NCBI GenBank assembly: GCA_035632315.1
Contig: DASQGZ010000034.1
Span: 12,693-76,692, forward strand
From: Candidatus Kapaibacterium sp.
GTDB taxonomy: Bacteria; Bacteroidota; Ignavibacteria; Palsa-1295
Direction of reading: 5' to 3'
DNA length: 64,000 bases
A program made the translations under genes and the position numbers. The notes under the pieces were generated by a model, which was given only the letters and a program-made list of their open reading frames with translations, did not search any database and was not told the origin of the DNA. Of this stretch, positions 53,164 to 61,920 are shown one piece after another (within the stretch, counting starts at the first letter, position 1; every line of letters starts with the position of its first letter).

Positions 53164-53922
53164 ATGGAACCGTTACCGCCAGTAAAAGAAGTCGAATACC
53201 GCTGTATCATCGGCAAGGATTTCGACGAAATAATGGGGCAGGAGTACACAACCTTCAGCTTCGAAACAGCAAAGGAATTCTCGAGCTTCCGCTACGAGAT
53301 CGCCGTTCGCTATAAGCTCGAAGGCTCGAATATCACGTTCCGTGTGCTTGGTATGACGGCCACACGAATGATGATGCCTGCATTCGGGACTGCGCAATCG
53401 GTTCTGAAAGTCCCTCAGCTTCAGCCGGGGAAATACACCGTTACATTCGTTAAAAGCGATAGTAATGCAACCGAATTTTTTCTTGAGGTGACCAAACGTG
53501 GTTTGCAGATCGTCAAACCGATTCCCCGCAAGCGCTTTATTGACCTTGTCATTAAAGGCGAAGCGGCTGCTCATACGCCGAAAGCAGTCGCGTCAACGAT
53601 CTCGAAGTCGCCGCATGCGCCGCTCGTACCTCGAACGATCCAAAAGCGCCCGCCCCCCCCGACCCCGGAAGAACTTGAGATATTAGCAGCTTTGAAAGAC
53701 GAAACCCCTGAAGAACGCGATGCCCGCGAGGAACTCGAGCTCTTCGGAAGGCGCGCAGCAAGGAAGAAAGCAGTGGCTGCAAAGGCGAAGAAGTCCCATA
53801 AGCCATTGAAAAAGAAGGTGAAACCGGCAACCAAGAAAACGAAAGCAAAACCAAAGGCAAAGCCCAAAAAAGCTAAAAAACCTGTGAAAAAGAAGCCTGC
53901 TCCTAAGAAGAAGAGAAGATAA
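53164..53922 (+). CDS. hypothetical protein with C-terminal lysine/alanine/proline-rich histone-H1-like tail
   Basis: 170-aa globular N-terminal domain, Pro-rich linker, tail KKAVAAKAKKSHKPLKKKVKPATKKTKAKPKAKPKKAKKPVKKKPAPKKKRR. Confidence 0.55.
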   Translation: MEPLPPVKEVEYRCIIGKDFDEIMGQEYTTFSFETAKEFSSFRYEIAVRYKLEGSNITFRVLGMTATRMMMPAFGTAQSVLKVPQLQPGKYTVTFVKSDSNATEFFLEVTKRGLQIVKPIPRKRFIDLVIKGEAAAHTPKAVASTISKSPHAPLVPRTIQKRPPPPTPEELEILAALKDETPEERDAREELELFGRRAARKKAVAAKAKKSHKPLKKKVKPATKKTKAKPKAKPKKAKKPVKKKPAPKKKRR

Positions 53923-54064
53923 AACGTGCACAAGGATCAACAAAAATTTGAAATTTTGGGCACTTTATTGAAAAAAGCTGTATTTTCGCCAGTGGGATGA
54001 TGCAAAGTGTATCAACCCATTTGTGTACCCTTGCACCATTATTCATTTAATTTGGAGAGATACG

Positions 54065-54250
54065 ATGGAGCGATATAATGAACTCAAAGCACTGCTCGAA
54101 AGCTTCGAACCGGATTTCGAGAAGTTTTATGTTAAAGGCAATAAGTCCGCGGGTGTTCGTGTCCGTAAGGCTATGAACGAGTTGAAAAAGAAGGCCCAGG
54201 AGATTCGCATCGAAGTCCAAAATATGAAATCGGCCGAAGCGAAAGGCTAA
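54065..54250 (+). CDS. histone H1-like protein Hc1-family small DNA-binding protein
   Basis: KGNKSAGVRVRKAMNELKKKAQEIRIEVQN matches the Hc1 N-terminal domain (KGNKAAAQRVRTESIKLEK); start placed at internal ATG (MERYNEL). Confidence 0.6.
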   Translation: MERYNELKALLESFEPDFEKFYVKGNKSAGVRVRKAMNELKKKAQEIRIEVQNMKSAEAKG

Positions 54251-54328: not shown

Positions 54329-55198
54329 CTACTGAACAAACGCCAATGGCAGTGTTGCAGAATTACTGCCGGCAATGACTCGTAGGTAATACATTCCGTC
54401 AGATAAGCCGCTGCGGATAAACGGGATCATATACGAGCCCGCAGAATATGTGCTCGAAACAAGTTTCTCGACTTCCCTGCCTGTTATATCATAGATCGCG
54501 ATCGTTACCGGAGCGCTCTCACTCAAAGAAAGATGAATGGCACTTTGCTCCCGGATCGGGTTCGGAAATACCGATACGTTAAATGAAGATGCTGCCTGAT
54601 CCGGAATGCCTGAGTGCACGTCACTGTATGCGAGGTCATCAACTTCAAACCAGCTGCCGACATGGGGTGTCGATGAAGTCTTACCGCTGATCAAGAAAAT
54701 GACTGTCATTGTATCCGGAACCGTCAACGGGTCGAGATATGTATAGGGCAAACTCAACTGAGACCATTGTGAAACCTCCGTTGCTGAACGTATCGAAATG
54801 GCTCCGACCGGAGTTGAGGATTGCTTTGTCAGCGTCGATGCGATCGAAAGGACATCTCCGCTATCCGAATGAAATTTTATCCACATCGTAAGTGCAACGA
54901 CACGATGATCGACTCCCGAACCGGCATTGGCGGCGGTTGTATTGAAAAGCAGTGGCGGATATGGTGTGCCGGAAAATTGCACAACATCCCCGCGAGCCGC
55001 AAGCGACCCGCCGTGCGCATCTGTTGTGGATGATACGTTCGTGACCGATCCGGGGATATTCGATGTAGCCCAGTTGTCCGGATCACCGCCCGTCCAAGTC
55101 TCGAAGCCGGCATTAAGAATTTGTCCGTAATTCGCTTTGGGGAGGCATATAACGATGAGTACACAAAACAATAATTTTCTCATTAATAACTTTTCCAT
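54329..55198 (-). CDS. secreted hypothetical protein with T9SS C-terminal sorting domain
   Basis: signal peptide; CTD ...YSAGSYMIPFIRSGLSDGMYYLRVIAGSNSATLPLAFVQ. Confidence 0.6.
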   Translation of the reverse strand: MEKLLMRKLLFCVLIVICLPKANYGQILNAGFETWTGGDPDNWATSNIPGSVTNVSSTTDAHGGSLAARGDVVQFSGTPYPPLLFNTTAANAGSGVDHRVVALTMWIKFHSDSGDVLSIASTLTKQSSTPVGAISIRSATEVSQWSQLSLPYTYLDPLTVPDTMTVIFLISGKTSSTPHVGSWFEVDDLAYSDVHSGIPDQAASSFNVSVFPNPIREQSAIHLSLSESAPVTIAIYDITGREVEKLVSSTYSAGSYMIPFIRSGLSDGMYYLRVIAGSNSATLPLAFVQ

Positions 55199-55334: not shown

Positions 55335-57500
55335 TCAGAATGAATGATGCACGATGCCCTTCGTCACTGTCATCCCTTCCGATTGTAATCTGCACATATA
55401 GACTCCATCCGCAAGATGCAGGCTTGCCGCATCGAATGAGATCTCGTGCTCGCCATTTGTTTGAAATTCGTTGACAAGCGTTGCGATCTCTTTCCCCGTT
55501 ATGTCTAACATATCCAGTCGAACAAGAGACGACAAAGGAACAACGTACCGTATGGTCGTTTCACCGGCGAACGGATTCGGATAGTTCTGCACGACCGAAG
55601 CATCCCAAGCAACCGGCACAGGCATAGTTACCCCACTTTTGCTCGGTCGTTGAGTACGGTAGAGCCCTGAACCCGTCGTGCCGGCATAGGCTATCTGATG
55701 CGCAGCGTCGTCATACATAAATGTCGGCGTACTTGCAAACGGGAACGTAGCTGCAAACCAAACAGAACCTCCGCTAGAGGAGGTTGACATTGCTGTCGCG
55801 CTCGCTGCGATCATAAAGAGACTCGGAGATTCTATGACAAGACCTGTAATATTCTTCAATGACGATGATAATGTCAACCAGCTCGCTCCGTTGTTGTTCG
55901 TATAATAAACACCATCAGCATTCGACGCATAGACATACCCAGTCGTACTATGAGCTGTCACTGCAAGGGGATTTGTGACAAGATTAGATGACAATTGCCA
56001 CGCATCGCCGTTGTTCGTTGTGTAATACACGCCTGATGTACAAAATGCAAATACATATCCTTGTGAACCGACGGTCAGGAATTTGATCGTATCCTGCGGG
56101 ATGCCGCTTCGCTTAATGCTCCAAGATAAACCGTTATCGATCGACCGATAGACCGTTCCGTTAAATCCGCCGAGAAACACTGTGCCGGAAGGCGTCACAC
56201 ACGATGCACGCATCAATGTTTTATTGATCCCGATGAGAAGCGAACCGGCTGTAATATCCGTCCAGGTATTGCCATCGTCAGTTGAATGATAGACTGCCGT
56301 TCCGAAAGCCGTCGCGTATAATTCGGTTGCGCTGGTCGCCGTGATGGAAGTAAAATTATGCGAAACGAGTACATCGCTTTGCACCGGTAACCAAGTATCG
56401 CCCTGATCGACCGAGCGGTATAATTCTGCGGTATCCGCCACAGCAAAGATATTTCCGCTGCTATCGGCTCCCATCGCCTGCACGGAGGCAGTGATCATAC
56501 CTTTACTACTCGGATTCCAAGTTTTGCACGTATCATGAGATGCAAAAACTCCGTTCTTCGAGAGCCCTTCAAAAAAATCCGAGTTTTTTCCTAAAAGACA
56601 GAGTGCATTATCGACGTCTGCAGTTGCCGCACGCACCGATTTCCAGGAGGCACCACCATTACGGGAAAACCACAGACCGGCTCCGCCGCTAACAAGGATG
56701 CTGTTGCCCTCATCGGTCGCAACTTCTGTGCCTGATGTAATATTCAATCCTCCGGTGCCGGAAATAATATTCCAGGAATTCCCGCTATCTGCCGAAGAAA
56801 AGATCCCTGCCTGGCTTGTTGCATACAGAGTTCCGGCAGCAGAGACTGCAATTGCGGCAACAACTTGTGGGAGCGATCCGGTGCTCACATTTGTCCATGA
56901 ACTTCCTTCATCTGTCGAACGAATCAGTCCGCCTGCGGTAATACCAAAGACTGAGCCGCTTGGTCCGCGGAAGAGCCGTGTGACCGGGAAAAGATCGGTC
57001 ACTCCGGGTTCGACCGGAATTCCATTCGTCGAATTACTCCACGACGTTCCCTGATTGCTTGAGCTGAATACGCCTGCGCCATAAGTTCCGACGATTATTG
57101 TTCCGTTCGAATTAACGGTAATCGAAAGCAAACTTGGTGCTGTCAGTGACGCGACCTGATTCCATGTTACACCTTGATCGGTCGATTTATAGGCGCCGGA
57201 ACTTGTCACAGCATACGCAACTGTCCCCGCAGGATCAAATGCAATAGCACTCTGCGAAGAGAAATCGAATGATTGGCTCGACGAAGTCCAGCTCGCGCCT
57301 TTATTCGTTGTCCGAAATACTTGCTTTGAAGCTGCAGCGAGTACGACGTTTCCTGACCCTTTTGCGAATGTCCAGACTTGCGCCCCTGCAGGACCTGCCG
57401 TCTGTTCAAATGTTGTTGGTTGTCCAAACGAATCGCCTGTAATTACCAACAAAGACAGAGCCATCACGCCAAAAAACGAATGTAATTTCATACTGATCAA
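55335..57500 (-). CDS. secreted multi-BNR/Asp-box beta-propeller protein with T9SS C-terminal sorting domain
   Basis: 721 aa; at least 12 SxDxGxxW boxes; CTD ...LHLADGVYMCRLQSEGMTVTKGIVHHSF. Confidence 0.7.
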   Translation of the reverse strand: MISMKLHSFFGVMALSLLVITGDSFGQPTTFEQTAGPAGAQVWTFAKGSGNVVLAAASKQVFRTTNKGASWTSSSQSFDFSSQSAIAFDPAGTVAYAVTSSGAYKSTDQGVTWNQVASLTAPSLLSITVNSNGTIIVGTYGAGVFSSSNQGTSWSNSTNGIPVEPGVTDLFPVTRLFRGPSGSVFGITAGGLIRSTDEGSSWTNVSTGSLPQVVAAIAVSAAGTLYATSQAGIFSSADSGNSWNIISGTGGLNITSGTEVATDEGNSILVSGGAGLWFSRNGGASWKSVRAATADVDNALCLLGKNSDFFEGLSKNGVFASHDTCKTWNPSSKGMITASVQAMGADSSGNIFAVADTAELYRSVDQGDTWLPVQSDVLVSHNFTSITATSATELYATAFGTAVYHSTDDGNTWTDITAGSLLIGINKTLMRASCVTPSGTVFLGGFNGTVYRSIDNGLSWSIKRSGIPQDTIKFLTVGSQGYVFAFCTSGVYYTTNNGDAWQLSSNLVTNPLAVTAHSTTGYVYASNADGVYYTNNNGASWLTLSSSLKNITGLVIESPSLFMIAASATAMSTSSSGGSVWFAATFPFASTPTFMYDDAAHQIAYAGTTGSGLYRTQRPSKSGVTMPVPVAWDASVVQNYPNPFAGETTIRYVVPLSSLVRLDMLDITGKEIATLVNEFQTNGEHEISFDAASLHLADGVYMCRLQSEGMTVTKGIVHHSF

Positions 57501-58270
57501 GTTTAGGATGAATGACGATTAATGCCGGAATCGAATAAAAAACACACCGGTAAATACAAAGTTACAGTCCTTTCTCGCAAAATGACCAAAATCCTAATTT
57601 AATACCTGCATAATGACGACAAAATATCAACTGTGTATTTTTGCACAGGTGTTTTTATCAATGAATACTCTTCGTTTTGTCATAGTCGTATTGTGCATCG
57701 CAGGCCTCCTTCGCCTGATCGGTTAATCGTTTTTTTTTCTGTATATACTCCAAAAATCATCCGTTCTCATAATCCATTTTATATGCCAATGTCTATGCTC
57801 ATATTCAGAATATTAAGGGCCAAAAAAATAAAATTGGATCTTTTTGACATAAAAAAACACTCATCCCCATTGTTATTTTAACCGCCATAAAAGATAAATT
57901 TTTGAAATTATTAGTTTAACGACTCAGCGTATAAGTTATTGATATTTAATAAATTATAAGAATCTATCTTTTACTTCAAAAATAATTTGCACTTGCTATG
58001 TTTTTTAATTATATTCGTATCCGTTTCTAGTTGCCCCTTCGCTCAAAACTGAATAGTTAGCCGTAATCCGCGAGTAAAAATCTCTCGGAGTAGTATGCCG
58101 TGCCAAAGGAGTTACCGATACTGTTTGTTTCGGTTACTCGAAACGATAAATTTGTTTCTGGCTTTGAAATAAGAGATAATGTAGGGGTGATCTTTATTCT
58201 GTAAAGATCAGCATTATTTTTTATGGCGGAAGCAACGGGAAAAAAGTTTTTATCACTAACCCATACATAT

Positions 58271-61200
58271 ATGAAGCAGGCACGTTTTCTTTTTGCCCTG
58301 TGGATTCTTTCACTCTTTGCAGCGAAAGACATATCTGCACAAATAACGCGCAGTTTTACCTATCAAGGTATTTTGGTTAATGCAGCAAACCAGCCCCTGA
58401 GCGGTGAACATCGTCTGACGGTAAAGCTTTACGATTCGCCTACCGAAGGCGCTGTTGTTCATAACGAGTCGTTCGCCACGACACTCGATAAGGGCGTCTT
58501 CAATGTGACGATCGGTTCAGAAACGCCATTCGAACCTCATTTTTCGTTCGCGAAGCAATACTGGATCGGCGTCAGCGTGGACGACGGCGTCGAAATGACA
58601 CCGCGTACGCTCGTTACTACCGTCCCGTATGCTTTGTCGTCTAATGAGGCAAGTGCGCTTACGCCAAATGCGACAGGAGCCGTACGCAGTTTCAATGGCC
58701 GCACTGGTGATCTCGTACTTAAAAGTGGAAACGGTCTCGATATTGAAACCGTCGGCAACACGATCACGATCTCGACTGCACTATCAGGTTATAAAGGCGG
58801 CGGAGCGCCACAGCAATCATTTGTAAATAGTGCGGCAGGAACAGCAAATCAAATATTTGTAAATGGTGGTGTCAGCGCGCAAACAGGAGCAGTCACACTC
58901 AGTCTTCCGCAAGATATTGCTACAACCTCTTCCCCAACATTTGGCGGGATGAAGGTGACAAATTTAAACACCACAGGCATCGTACATAACACATTGACAG
59001 GTACATTGTCGACTTCGCTGATCGTCGATGGTGATGTCAGCCCAAGTGCGGGCATTTCCGATTCCAAACTTGCAACGATCTCAAGTGCAGGAAAAGTAAA
59101 TAATTCTGCTACTACCGCAACATCCTCGAATACGGCGAATAGCATTGTATCACGCGATGCATCAGGTAATTTCAGCGCGGCAACGATCACTGGGAATCTC
59201 AATGGCAATGCAACGACTGCATCGACATTCACCGGTTCGCTTTCAGGGGATGTGACAGGGACAGAATCATCAACGGCCGTTAGCACTGTCGGTGGCCAGT
59301 CTGCAGCTAATGTTGCTTCGGGTGCAGTTGCGGCTAATGCTGCAACAAATGCGAATACTGCAAGCACGATCGTCAAACGCGATGCGTCCGGTAATTTCAG
59401 CGCCGGAACGATCACGGGTAATCTTAATGGCAATGCAACGACTGCAACGGCTGCATCGACATTTACCGGCTCGCTTTCAGGGGATGTGATAGGGACAGAA
59501 TCGGCAACAGTCGTCAGCACTGTCGGTGGTCAGTCTGCAGCAAATGTTGCTTCGAGTGCAGTTGCGGCTAATGCTGCAACAAACGCGAATACTGCAAATA
59601 CGATCGTCAAACGTGATGGTTCGGGTAATTTTAATGCCGGACAGATGACCGGAAATTTAAACGGCAATGTCATCGGTAATCTTGTCGGAAACATAACAGG
59701 TAATCTTACCGGTAATGTTGTCGGTAACCTGACAGGCAATGTGACAGGTAATATAACAGGCGATGTCAGCGGCACATCTGCAAATGTAACCGGAGTCGTG
59801 ACCGAAGCGCACGGTGGAACAAACCAAAGCACATATACAGCCGGTGATATGCTCTATGCTTCGGGCGCGAATACGCTTTCGAAGCGTTCGATCGGCGCTG
59901 CAGGAAACGTGCTTTCAGTTTCGGGCGGGATCCCGGTGTGGTCAGCTCTGTCATCGCTTGGCGTGACATCGGTCGCAGGTACTGCGAATCAGGTACTCGT
60001 TAATGGCAGCACTTCCGCTCAACTTGGCAGTGTCGCATTATCCTTGCCACAGAATATTGACCTTGGCGCAACACCGCAATTTGCGAATGTGAATCTCACT
60101 GCTATTCCGAATAGCAGTACATACACTAACTTTGTCGTCTCGGCCGGAGGCGCATTGCAAACCCGCAGTTTCGCATCGCTTGCGAACGGATACTGGGCAC
60201 GCGGCGGAAATGCCGGTACAACTCCAGGGACTGACTATGTCGGTACCAGCGATAACACCGCTTTGTATTTGGGAGTCAATGGCGCAGCACGACTCGTGCT
60301 CGGAACGAACGGAAGCATGCAACATGATGCAGGCGGCAACACACGAGGCACCAATGCGATCGATCTACAACTGACAAGAACCGATGCTTCACACATTGCT
60401 TCAGGCGATTACTCAGTGCTTGCCGGTGGCCGTGACAATACAGCCAGCGGTACCGGCTCATTCGTCGGAGGCGGCGGCACCGATGGAACGACGGTTATTC
60501 CGAATATTGCTTCCGGCAACGGATCGGTCATCAGCGGCGGTCTTTGGAATACTTCGAGCGATGAAGCAACTGTTGTCGCAGGAGGTTACCACAATACGGC
60601 AAGCAATACAACAGCAACAGTCGGCGGAGGATCTGCAAATACTGCAAGCGGCGGGTTTTCGACGGTCGCCGGAGGCAGTGGCAACGCGGCAAGCAGCATC
60701 GCCGATCTTGTCAGTGGCGGTTATCAAAATAATGCGAGCGGCGGATACTCCACTGTAGGTGGAGGAACAGGAAATAGTGCAACAAAATATGCTTCGACCG
60801 TTAATGGGGGCTTCGGCAATACTGCAGGCGGGCTCTATAGCAGCATAAACGGTGGGAAGAGCAATTCTGTCAGTTCAGACTACTCGTCGATCGACGGAGG
60901 ACTCTCTAACACAGTGAGTGACCAATATAGCGGAGTCGGAAGCGGGTTTAACAATAGTGTCTCAAACACGTTCAGCTTCATCGGTGGCGGACAGAATAAT
61001 GAAGCAGGTTCGTATTCCGGTGTAGTAGGCGGCGGTTATAATAATCATTCGCTCGCTAATTATTCAGCCGTTGTTGGCGGTCAGCTCAATTATGCTGAAG
61101 CAGATTATACATTCACCGGGGGTGGCTACAACAATATCGTTGAAGCTGGCTACTCGGCCACCTCAGGCGGTTACAAGAACATCGCAGATGGCTCGTACGA

Positions 61201-61837
61201 AGTGATCGCAGGTGGATATTCGAACGCAGGCTATTCCACGGCCGGCGTCGTCTCGGGCGGAGCTTCGAACCAATCGGTCGGAGATTATTCTACGATCGAC
61301 GGCGGATCGAGCAACACGACCAACGCAAATTATTCGACGATCACCGGCGGTGCGAATAACACGACGACATCCGGCGCTGATTATTCAGTTGCATACGGCA
61401 ATTCGGCAAACACATCACAGTATGGACAACAGGCGCAGGCAGCGGGTCAGTTTTCTTCCAACGGCGATGCACAGACATCCGTCTATGTAGAGCGCGGTTC
61501 GACTAACAGTACCACTACCGTGAACTTGGCTCTTGACGGCGGCTCGACCGAACTTGTTGTACCGGGAAGCACAACGTTCGCGTTCAAGATACTTGTCGCT
61601 GCTCGTGACGACGCCGGAAACTCGGCAACGTACCTTATCGAAGGTAATGCCGCTAATAATAGCGGCACAGTGACGATCACATCGTCTGCTACAACAAGCT
61701 ACACCAACGGATTCACCACCGGTTCTGTATCAGTCAGTTCGAATAGTGCGACGATGCGTATCAAGGTTAGCGATTCCAATGGGTCGCATACGGTTCATTG
61801 GGTAGCCCGTGTGGAAACAGCAGAAGTTATGTTTTAA
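58271..61837 (+). CDS. giant secreted Gly/Asn/Thr/Ser-rich repeat protein (tail-fibre/YadA-head Hep_Hag-like repeats); putative adhesin or surface fibre
   Basis: signal peptide MKQARFLFALWILSLFAAKDISAQ; three protein repeats of about 79 aa (IVKRDASGNFSAGTITGNLNGNATTA...); GNxTGN heptads; 14-mer repeats S.V.GG..N.ASG; C-terminal Phe. Confidence 0.7.
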   Translation: MKQARFLFALWILSLFAAKDISAQITRSFTYQGILVNAANQPLSGEHRLTVKLYDSPTEGAVVHNESFATTLDKGVFNVTIGSETPFEPHFSFAKQYWIGVSVDDGVEMTPRTLVTTVPYALSSNEASALTPNATGAVRSFNGRTGDLVLKSGNGLDIETVGNTITISTALSGYKGGGAPQQSFVNSAAGTANQIFVNGGVSAQTGAVTLSLPQDIATTSSPTFGGMKVTNLNTTGIVHNTLTGTLSTSLIVDGDVSPSAGISDSKLATISSAGKVNNSATTATSSNTANSIVSRDASGNFSAATITGNLNGNATTASTFTGSLSGDVTGTESSTAVSTVGGQSAANVASGAVAANAATNANTASTIVKRDASGNFSAGTITGNLNGNATTATAASTFTGSLSGDVIGTESATVVSTVGGQSAANVASSAVAANAATNANTANTIVKRDGSGNFNAGQMTGNLNGNVIGNLVGNITGNLTGNVVGNLTGNVTGNITGDVSGTSANVTGVVTEAHGGTNQSTYTAGDMLYASGANTLSKRSIGAAGNVLSVSGGIPVWSALSSLGVTSVAGTANQVLVNGSTSAQLGSVALSLPQNIDLGATPQFANVNLTAIPNSSTYTNFVVSAGGALQTRSFASLANGYWARGGNAGTTPGTDYVGTSDNTALYLGVNGAARLVLGTNGSMQHDAGGNTRGTNAIDLQLTRTDASHIASGDYSVLAGGRDNTASGTGSFVGGGGTDGTTVIPNIASGNGSVISGGLWNTSSDEATVVAGGYHNTASNTTATVGGGSANTASGGFSTVAGGSGNAASSIADLVSGGYQNNASGGYSTVGGGTGNSATKYASTVNGGFGNTAGGLYSSINGGKSNSVSSDYSSIDGGLSNTVSDQYSGVGSGFNNSVSNTFSFIGGGQNNEAGSYSGVVGGGYNNHSLANYSAVVGGQLNYAEADYTFTGGGYNNIVEAGYSATSGGYKNIADGSYEVIAGGYSNAGYSTAGVVSGGASNQSVGDYSTIDGGSSNTTNANYSTITGGANNTTTSGADYSVAYGNSANTSQYGQQAQAAGQFSSNGDAQTSVYVERGSTNSTTTVNLALDGGSTELVVPGSTTFAFKILVAARDDAGNSATYLIEGNAANNSGTVTITSSATTSYTNGFTTGSVSVSSNSATMRIKVSDSNGSHTVHWVARVETAEVMF
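59140..59690 (+). repeat. intragenic tandem DNA repeat, unit about 237 bp, about 2.3 copies at more than 90% identity
   Basis: near-identical blocks beginning ATCGTCAAACGCGATGCGTCCGGTAATTTCAGCGCCGGAACGATCACGGG at about 59143, 59371 and 59608. Confidence 0.75.
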
Positions 61838-61920
61838 AGTCAGAAAGAGTAGAGAGAGAGTTCGATCTGACTTTTTTAAGAGAAGGCTGTGAAGCGATTT
61901 GCTTCACAGCCTTTTTCTTT
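61838..61920. terminator. two tandem hairpin terminators (the second is perfect and bidirectional)
   Basis: AAGTCAGAaag...tcgATCTGACTTtttt, then AAGGCTGTGAAGCgatttGCTTCACAGCCTTtttc. Confidence 0.7.

Follow-up and report, generated by a model that had tools for sequence, protein, structure and literature searches.

The stretch of DNA analysed here, hereafter the window, comprises 64,000 nucleotides (nt) from Candidatus Kapaibacterium sp. (Bacteroidota; assembly GCA_035632315.1, contig DASQGZ010000034.1, positions 12,693 to 76,692 of the forward strand), and this study concerns one of its genes, a single unbroken open reading frame (ORF) on the + strand that encodes a long, repetitive, fibre-like protein. 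The longest form of the ORF spans 58223-61837, with an in-frame ATG at 58223, and we placed the start further downstream, at 58271 (MKQARFLF...), because an orthologue, P0003, begins there; the product is then 1188 amino acids (aa) long. The gene order is hisS, a gene for a Lys-rich protein, Hc1, two genes for cargo of the type IX secretion system (T9SS), the fibre gene, a terminator hairpin, a convergent Peptidase_C26/GATase gene and lpxK. The protein is rich in small and polar residues (G 14.8, S 13.2, T 12.4, A 11.9 and N 9.5%), charged residues are scarce, and Cys is absent altogether. The positions of its parts, and of the neighbouring features discussed below, are collected in Table 1.

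A preliminary description of the window, made from the sequence alone, had proposed at 58271-61837 a gene for a secreted protein of the fibre or adhesin type, in which several repeat grammars are stacked behind a signal peptide and which ends in Phe without a T9SS C-terminal domain. These points were borne out: the ORF is real, all three repeat classes exist, the last residues read ...AEVMF, and the Pfam and NCBIfam scans found no Por_Secre_tail domain in the fibre protein at E ≤ 1, though both T9SS cargo genes upstream carry one (E = 1.3e-8 and 3.8e-7). The same description had suggested checking for a Peptidase_S74 chaperone (PF13884), and here the Pfam scan found no match in the fibre protein, nor any to YadA_anchor.

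Table 1. Positions in the window of the fibre gene, of the segments of its product and of neighbouring features.
Feature	Position	Strand	Residues or size	Remarks
Fibre gene	58271..61837	+	1188 codons + stop	
Signal peptide	58271..58339	+	aa 1-23	MKQARFLFALWILSLFAAKDISA/Q; sequence reading, homologue leaders, modelled helix
N-terminal β-sandwich	58343..58645	+	aa ~25-125	homologue conservation, AlphaFold
Proximal shaft modules	58646..59143	+	aa 126-291	comparison with homologues
Large repeat unit 1	59144..59368	+	aa 292-366 (75 aa, 225 nt)	
Large repeat unit 2	59369..59602	+	aa 367-444 (78 aa, 234 nt)	
Partial third copy	59603..59668	+	aa 445-466	IVKRDGSGNFNAGQMTGNLNGN; merges into tetrapeptide array
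Tetrapeptide array	59651..59770	+	aa 461-500	ten G-[ND]-[LIV]-x units
Distal shaft modules	59771..60385	+	aa 501-705	comparison with homologues
UspA1/YadA-head-like β-roll array	60386..61390	+	aa 706-1040	
C-terminal tip	61391..61834	+	aa 1041-1188	GDAQTS...WVARVETAEVMF motifs; all-β sandwich
Intrinsic-terminator-like hairpin	61880..61916	+	17-bp stem, then T run	43 nt past the stop
Lys-rich protein gene	53164..53922	+	252 aa	no Pfam match
Hc1 histone-like gene	54023..54250			Pfam Hc1, E = 2e-22
T9SS cargo gene	54329..55198	-		C-terminal Por_Secre_tail
T9SS cargo gene (BNR/sortilin-Vps10-type)	55335..57500	-		C-terminal Por_Secre_tail
Spacer upstream of fibre gene	57501..58270		~770 nt	between divergent genes
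Inverted repeat in spacer, left arm	57882..57897		16 nt	15/16 complementary to right arm
Inverted repeat, right arm	58214..58229		16 nt	

The predicted signal peptide was read from the sequence, in which n-region MKQAR (K2/R5), h-region FLFALWILSLFAA and c-region KDISA/Q follow the usual n/h/c layout. Most of the 16 homologues in the alignment have a hydrophobic leader, and residues 2-20 were modelled as a helix in the predicted structure. As the protein has no Cys, a lipobox is absent. Behind the signal peptide lies an N-terminal domain (N-domain) with the motifs xxYQG, G75/F77 and P111-R112...P119-Y, which AlphaFold models as a β-sandwich with a predicted local distance difference test (pLDDT) score of about 88-96 over residues 31-110. 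A Foldseek search with the N-domain against the PDB returned nothing at E ≤ 1e-3. Profiles of the N-domain and of the C-terminal tip described below gave no significant match among PDB sequences; the best, lambda tail tip protein I, had E = 0.49, and we treated it as chance.

A homologue search returned 1918 proteins at E ≤ 1e-3, which carry subsets of the shaft modules in varying order, and the best 120 of these were examined for domain content. Among the 120, both protein ends are common to P0001, P0002 and P0003 only, while the N-domain is found in 17, nearly always at the N-terminus and straight after the signal peptide. Homologues with the same N-domain bear alternative tips, namely Peptidase_S74 (P0024, P0066, P0098), an FGE-sulfatase/C-type-lectin fold (P0094), or Cys-rich or His-rich segments. 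Peptidase_S74 is present in 17/120 overall, and at the end of other proteins that share shaft modules stand collagen domains, C1q domains or phage Collar domains. A profile search with the N-domain alignment A1 returned mostly short fragments. The metagenome-assembled genome (MAG) labelled 'Proteobacteria bacterium NTY08' encodes at least two fibres that combine this N-domain with a Cys-rich tip (P0084, P0070/P0273), and a third protein from it, P0285, matches the N-domain in part.

Between the two ends lies a shaft of several kinds of module. The proximal part contains SFNGRTGDL... and GTANQIFVNG...LSLPQDI...SPTF, the latter recurring at aa 571-604, and here begins an NSATTATS.NTANSIV module, common to phage fibres, which runs into the first large repeat unit. 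The distal part contains HGGTNQSTYTAGDMLYA..., a second GTANQV...LSLPQNI module, and YWARGGNAGTTPGTDYVGTSDN.... When two segments of the shaft were compared with PDB sequences by phmmer, only noise was returned, namely designed 'Bagel' propellers and a MarR regulator (E = 0.17). Long antisense ORFs (up to 223 aa; e.g., 58849-59520, -) also cross the repeat region. They result from coding sequence that is repetitive and rich in G, A, T, S and N codons, and are not genes; simple ORF picking in the viral loci described below is misled in the same way.

Each of the three repeat classes differs in its details from what had first been described. The large repeats had been given as 237-bp units of more than 90% identity. 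They are real and tandem, but consist of two units of unequal length that are 88.9% identical at the nucleotide and 91% identical at the amino acid level (Tandem Repeats Finder: period 234, 86% identity), followed by a third copy that retains the first 22 residues only before the tetrapeptide repeat takes over. The two units are separated by 16 synonymous and seven non-synonymous codon differences, and their longest exact common run is 28 nt. With 11% of their positions different, chiefly through synonymous changes, the sequence argues against assembly collapse or an artefactual duplication. The repeat that had been read as GN(V/L/I)TGN heptads likewise exists, but with a period of four residues (12 nt), and its longest exact in-register DNA run is 9 nt.

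The third class, an array of S.V.GG..N.ASG units compared in the preliminary description with YadA heads, is indeed YadA/UspA1-like, but its period is 15 residues and not 14 (autocorrelation 0.41 at lag 15 vs 0.155 at lag 14). It comprises 19 regular 15-residue (45 nt) units at aa 756-1040 (from nt 60536), with an irregular lead-in from about aa 706. A phmmer search of PDB sequences matched the UspA1 head (3pr7) to aa 768-1024 with E = 4e-16. The Smith-Waterman score of this pair, 321, compares with 104 ± 14 in 300 composition-preserving shuffles (z = 15.7), so at the level of sequence the likeness to the UspA1 head exceeds what composition explains. The Pfam YadA_head model did not match the fibre protein even at E = 1.

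The C-terminal tip was modelled from the last 159 residues with a 36-sequence alignment, giving an all-β sandwich with a mean pLDDT of 92.8. Two independent structure searches concur on the best matches, all of them phage proteins (values of the first and second search in brackets): tail fibre gp42 of Klebsiella phage Kp9 (7xy1; 3.1e-4, 9.4), a gp9-like baseplate protein (9f4a; KP1; 8.6e-3, 8.3), tailspike gp49 of Acinetobacter phage Fri1 (6c72; 2.5e-4, 8.2) and T4 gp9 (1qex; 3.3e-3, not listed in the second search). Aa 1040-1188 were searched against 1.84 billion cluster representatives (50% identity) at E ≤ 1e-3, and the domain was matched in 2311 clusters. It forms the extreme C-terminus in all 151 of the top matches examined, 121 of which stop at the identical position, and in the family it is usually preceded by head-type repeats. 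No Pfam or PHROG model matched the ten family members scanned per library, and a literature search by motif found no papers.

These two segments bear on the possibility that the protein is a trimeric autotransporter adhesin (type Vc), in which heads are carried on a stalk and a C-terminal β-barrel anchors and exports the trimer. The head array itself recalls UspA1, some homologues match Pfam YadA_head, some relatives are labelled 'trimeric autotransporter adhesin' at source, and the C-terminal aromatic residue resembles the β-signal of outer-membrane proteins. However, YadA_anchor was unmatched, and the last 148 residues were modelled with confidence as a soluble, phage-tip-like β-sandwich and not as four transmembrane strands; the same domain terminates phage fibres that have no signal peptide, and the polarity is reversed, with the head array adjoining the C-terminus. 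We therefore rejected this explanation, since the β-barrel anchor is absent and a soluble sandwich of phage type takes its place, and we regard it as scarcely credible.

An aromatic residue occurs in the last three positions of 48 of the 59 tip-family members with a signal-peptide-like N-terminus and of 20 of the 51 without (Fisher p = 1e-5), although phylogeny and the truncation of some gene calls are confounders of these counts (members P0121-P0268). None of the eight tip versions from viral contigs (L004-L011) has an aromatic there (0/8); they end in ...EVTG/A/N/S/D. The terminal aromatic may serve as a signal for export or retention, or simply be a trait of a subfamily.

The shaft and tip also connect the protein with phages. 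A shaft module of ~50 aa, NSATTAT..NTAN.IV.RDASGNFSAG.IT..L.GNA.TA, is 57-61% identical to phage fibres (query 59120-59800), with matches in 170 records that include cyanomyovirus fibres, among them a 'YadA domain-containing structural protein', and the tail fibre of Nitratiruptor phage NrS-4. A tblastn search with the tip found no match in 50,697 phage genomes (INPHARED), while a scan of IMG/VR yielded eight viral contigs that encode it with 31-38% identity. Five of these eight proteins also share the head repeats (query aa 768-1186, about 31%), and the viral proteins have neither a signal peptide nor the N-domain. On two of the contigs the neighbours of the tip gene match PHROG families of tail, minor-tail and tail-fibre proteins. 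The viral contigs also encode giant ORFs, fibre-like and 1599-2764 aa long (L007 156-8450, L010 2-4801 and 4843-10383, L011 2073-7634), and the viral ORFs L007 156-8450, L010 2-4801 and L011 3-2033 end in the tip and are followed by ORFs of 1085-1853 aa. Read from these comparisons, the distal half of the fibre is built of parts used in phage fibres, and the signal peptide and N-domain mark the cellular ones.

The surroundings of the gene are those of an ordinary chromosomal locus. Its G+C content is normal, and the annotated flanks, about 6 kb upstream and 2 kb downstream, contain no phage-like genes. P0002 and P0003, the latter from a Bacteroidetes MAG (GCA_018266755.1), occupy the same slot, with the order BNR/sortilin protein, fibre, GATase, lpxK, DUF374, lpxB and uvrA, so that synteny is kept in the related loci L001 and L003. 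P0001 (1987 aa) lies in a different chromosomal context, likewise without phage genes. A hairpin separates the fibre gene from the convergent GATase gene, and the fibre gene is seemingly monocistronic. Because of the synteny, the housekeeping neighbours and the normal G+C content, we take the fibre gene to be, on sequence grounds, a resident chromosomal gene and not a prophage remnant.

These findings settle two proposals of the preliminary description differently. That the protein shares modules with phage tail fibres is upheld by the ~50-aa module at ~60% identity, by the head-plus-tip proteins encoded beside tail genes in IMG/VR and by the fold of the tip. That it was acquired from a phage tail-fibre gene agrees with the shared modules, but transfer as a whole unit is opposed by the synteny, the G+C content, the lack of phage neighbours, the signal peptide and the N-domain. 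The related explanation that the protein is today the receptor-binding fibre of a particle, i.e., of a prophage, a tailocin or an extracellular contractile injection system, draws on the same evidence: modules common to cyanophage and Nitratiruptor phage fibres, a head-plus-tip cassette found beside tail genes in viral contigs, and a tip whose fold matches phage fibres and T4 gp9. Against it stand the N-domain and the Sec signal peptide, both missing from the viral versions, neighbours such as hisS, Hc1, T9SS cargo, GATase and lpxK with no phage-like gene in the annotated flanks, a chromosomal location that is shared by two other genomes, the normal G+C content of the gene, and a seemingly monocistronic gene with its own terminator. 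We consider a particle fibre very improbable.

A different route to the surface is suggested by the two adjacent genes with Por_Secre_tail domains, which indicate that the organism uses T9SS. If the C-terminal sandwich were an unrecognised sorting domain, secretion would cleave it off and leave the fibre linked to anionic lipopolysaccharide; it does sit exactly at the C-terminus across the family, and members with a signal peptide tend towards an aromatic end. However, Por_Secre_tail was unmatched, and the domain, at about 150 aa, is related to phage fibre tips and occurs in viral fibres without signal peptides. Furthermore, P0204 and P0248 pair the tip with a GTAFTYQG-type N-domain that is also seen in a match labelled Verrucomicrobiae, and relatives with the same N-domain as the fibre protein finish in S74 chaperones or lectin folds. 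The phylum of Verrucomicrobiae is not known to encode a T9SS. Secretion as T9SS cargo is thus a poor candidate, if not quite as poor as the particle fibre.

Comparison of the orthologues shows how the fibre has varied in length. Large repeat units number two in the query, none in P0002 and P0003 and about four in P0001, while tetrapeptide units number ten in the query, 18 in P0002 and 12 in P0003. The head arrays of P0002 and P0003 are about eight units shorter than that of the query, and both proteins have a shaft insert of ~45 residues that the query lacks. The P0002 and P0003 loci are ~93% identical at the DNA level, and the sole intragenic length change between them is 72 nt, or six tetrapeptide units. 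The preliminary description had expected slippage at near-identical repeats to produce length polymorphism. Over evolutionary time the idea holds, as copy numbers do differ between orthologues, but the repeats of this genome are degenerate, and because its DNA repeats have diverged, with varied codons and longest exact runs of 28 and 9 nt, frequent slippage of the phase-variation type is unlikely in this gene.

Taken together, we propose with a probability of roughly 0.6 that the gene encodes a mosaic fibre that is exported by Sec and displayed on the cell surface, most probably as a homotrimer, and that resembles the mosaic adhesive trimer (MAT) proteins. MATs have been defined by a signal peptide, a β-rich N-domain of ~130 aa without a solved homologue, a phage-like mosaic of ~1000 aa, and a swappable tip of the S74 or another type (PMC10769870). 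Those of Bdellovibrio bacteriovorus have been shown to be surface-located, and for one of their number the binding of prey glycans has been demonstrated (Caulton et al. 2024, Nat Microbiol; PMC10769870). Further MATs have been listed in the Fibrobacteres, Chlorobi and Bacteroidetes (FCB) group, the Planctomycetes, Verrucomicrobia and Chlamydiae (PVC) group, the Myxococcota and others, with β-sandwich, S74-like, collagen-like and FGE tips, and FCB-group members with β-sandwich tips are given in Table S3 of that paper (PMC10769870). By analogy, MAT fibres, which do not appear in the preliminary description, are the closest described class. The mosaic fibre gene itself is real and well delimited, and it is an ordinary member of a widespread class.

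In operation, the signal peptide seen in the sequence would carry the chain over the inner membrane, and the N-terminal β-sandwich would remain proximal and hold the fibre to the cell, as suggested by analogy with the Bdellovibrio MATs. A shaft of roughly 900 residues, made up of exchangeable repeat modules, namely the units of 75/78 aa, the GN[LIV]x tetrapeptides, modules like those of phage fibres and the 15-residue β-roll of UspA1 type, would then project the tip outward from the cell. The C-terminal sandwich would bind a ligand, probably a glycan, on another cell or surface. Over evolution, the gain and loss of repeat units and the exchange of cassettes with other fibres, those of phages included, tune the length and the tip, as the comparison of relatives shows.

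Several points weigh against this proposal. The fibre protein has no usable match in Pfam, NCBIfam or PHROG, and its place among the MATs rests on the architecture and on the published listing of FCB-group members, not on homology of the N-domain. When the divergent N-domain of P0084 was used as the query, 18 matches were returned, none of them from Bdellovibrio, 27-mer and 22-mer patterns derived from primers in the MAT paper had no match in the genome contig collection scanned, and an S74 query against the PDB did not match Bd3182. The trimeric state is one that we infer, because proteins with the same shaft modules carry S74, collagen or C1q domains, which are obligate trimers, because the head is of the trimeric UspA1 type and because trimeric phage proteins resemble the tip. 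The fold matches of the tip are modest, with TM-scores of 0.40 and identities of 15-17%, and its profile found nothing among PDB sequences; for these reasons the relation to the solved phage tips, as modelled, is at the level of fold only. Finally, neither a β-barrel, a lipobox, a T9SS C-terminal domain nor an adjacent partner gene was found that would explain how the fibre crosses the outer membrane.

The fibre could also be secreted and yet not adhesive, serving as a structural or protective surface-layer or matrix fibre, or as a decoy for the receptor-binding proteins of phages or predators. The single copy in the window would suit such a role, one relative is labelled 'S-layer family protein' at source, and two related proteins gave weak, sub-threshold matches to ice-binding β-rolls. 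However, a conserved base with a swappable tip, whose alternatives are lectin-like or resemble phage receptor-binding domains, is what would be expected of recognition fibres, and the MATs of Bdellovibrio bind prey glycans (PMC10769870). A non-adhesive role is unlikely in our view, if less so than delivery by T9SS.

A bolder extension of the MAT-like reading is that the GDAQ...WVA sandwich is an uncatalogued and widespread receptor-binding tip that is swapped as a head-plus-tip cassette between the tail fibres of phages and Sec-exported fibres of bacteria, and that the bacterial versions have gained their aromatic end as an export or retention signal for a route over the outer membrane that has yet to be described for fibres of this kind. 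This is speculative, and we would think it doubtful, though a little more plausible than a non-adhesive role. If true, the tip would give a non-Bdellovibrio bacterium of the FCB group phage-style specificity in the recognition of other cells.

A number of further observations concern the neighbourhood of the gene. No paralogue of the fibre gene was found elsewhere in the window. The larger T9SS neighbour is a β-propeller protein of the BNR/sortilin-Vps10 type that adjoins the fibre gene in L001 and L003 too, and this conserved adjacency could be functional or plain synteny. The spacer between these two divergent genes is unusually long and AT-rich, and its counterparts upstream of the fibre gene in the orthologous loci measure about 850-890 nt; neither an Rfam family nor a sigma-70-type promoter that would convince was found in the spacer. 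An inverted repeat in the spacer brackets 316 nt upstream of the fibre start. We rejected an inverton for this repeat, as ~0.25 such repeats are expected by chance in the AT-rich spacer and it is absent from L001 and L003; it is probably a chance occurrence. No recombinase gene was found among the annotated genes flanking the fibre gene. Directly upstream of the Hc1 gene lies the gene for the Lys-rich protein, whose last ~70 residues form a Lys/Ala/Pro-rich tail resembling that of histone H1 (KKAVAAKAKKSHKPLKKKVKPATKKTKAKPKAKPKKAKKPVKKKPAPKKKRR).

The locus does not overturn current understanding. It illustrates how bacterial surface fibres are assembled from a common pool of parts, with a base, repeats that set the length, and a tip of phage type, and it would extend the MAT-like architecture to an FCB-group genome in which the neighbouring surface proteins, unlike the fibre, use T9SS. 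Furthermore, it points to a large family of tips in phages and bacteria, of which the members tested had no match to any Pfam or PHROG model. With this family one could ask by what route such fibres traverse the outer membrane and how they are retained there, and whether fibres of phages and of bacteria that carry one and the same tip compete for receptors.

Among known systems, the fibre is most like the non-S74 subgroup of MAT fibres. Both have a signal peptide followed by a β-rich N-domain without a solved structural homologue, a length of about 1000 aa, shaft modules like those of phage fibres, and a variable C-terminal tip that folds independently, and the relatives with the same N-domain as the query bear S74, FGE/C-type-lectin or β-sandwich tips, as in PMC10769870. 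They differ in that the 15-residue β-roll of UspA1 type and the tip family of the query are not described in the main text or in Tables S1 and S3 of PMC10769870, and in that Bdellovibrio has 21 copies, whereas the query is single in the window, with no evidence that its host is predatory. The multi-copy repertoire of NTY08 recalls, by analogy, the set of 21 MAT genes in Bdellovibrio. With UspA1 (3pr7) and the YadA head (PF05658) the fibre shares an array of GG..N.A...S.. repeats of the left-handed β-roll type, but it is without a β-barrel anchor, carries its head near the C-terminus and not the N-terminus, keeps a strict 15-residue period, and has no evident coiled-coil stalk (no coiled-coil predictor was run). 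The phage tips 7xy1, 6c72, 9f4a and 1qex match the modelled all-β sandwich of the query's C-terminus in fold, but at 12-17% identity and with no match at the sequence level, and they are parts of virions without a signal peptide. The fibres of cyanomyoviruses (S-CAM22, Syn19, S-RIM8 and others) and of NrS-4 have only the ~50-aa module in common with the query, whose tip was unmatched in the INPHARED genomes, and in that one module the identity reaches 57-61%.

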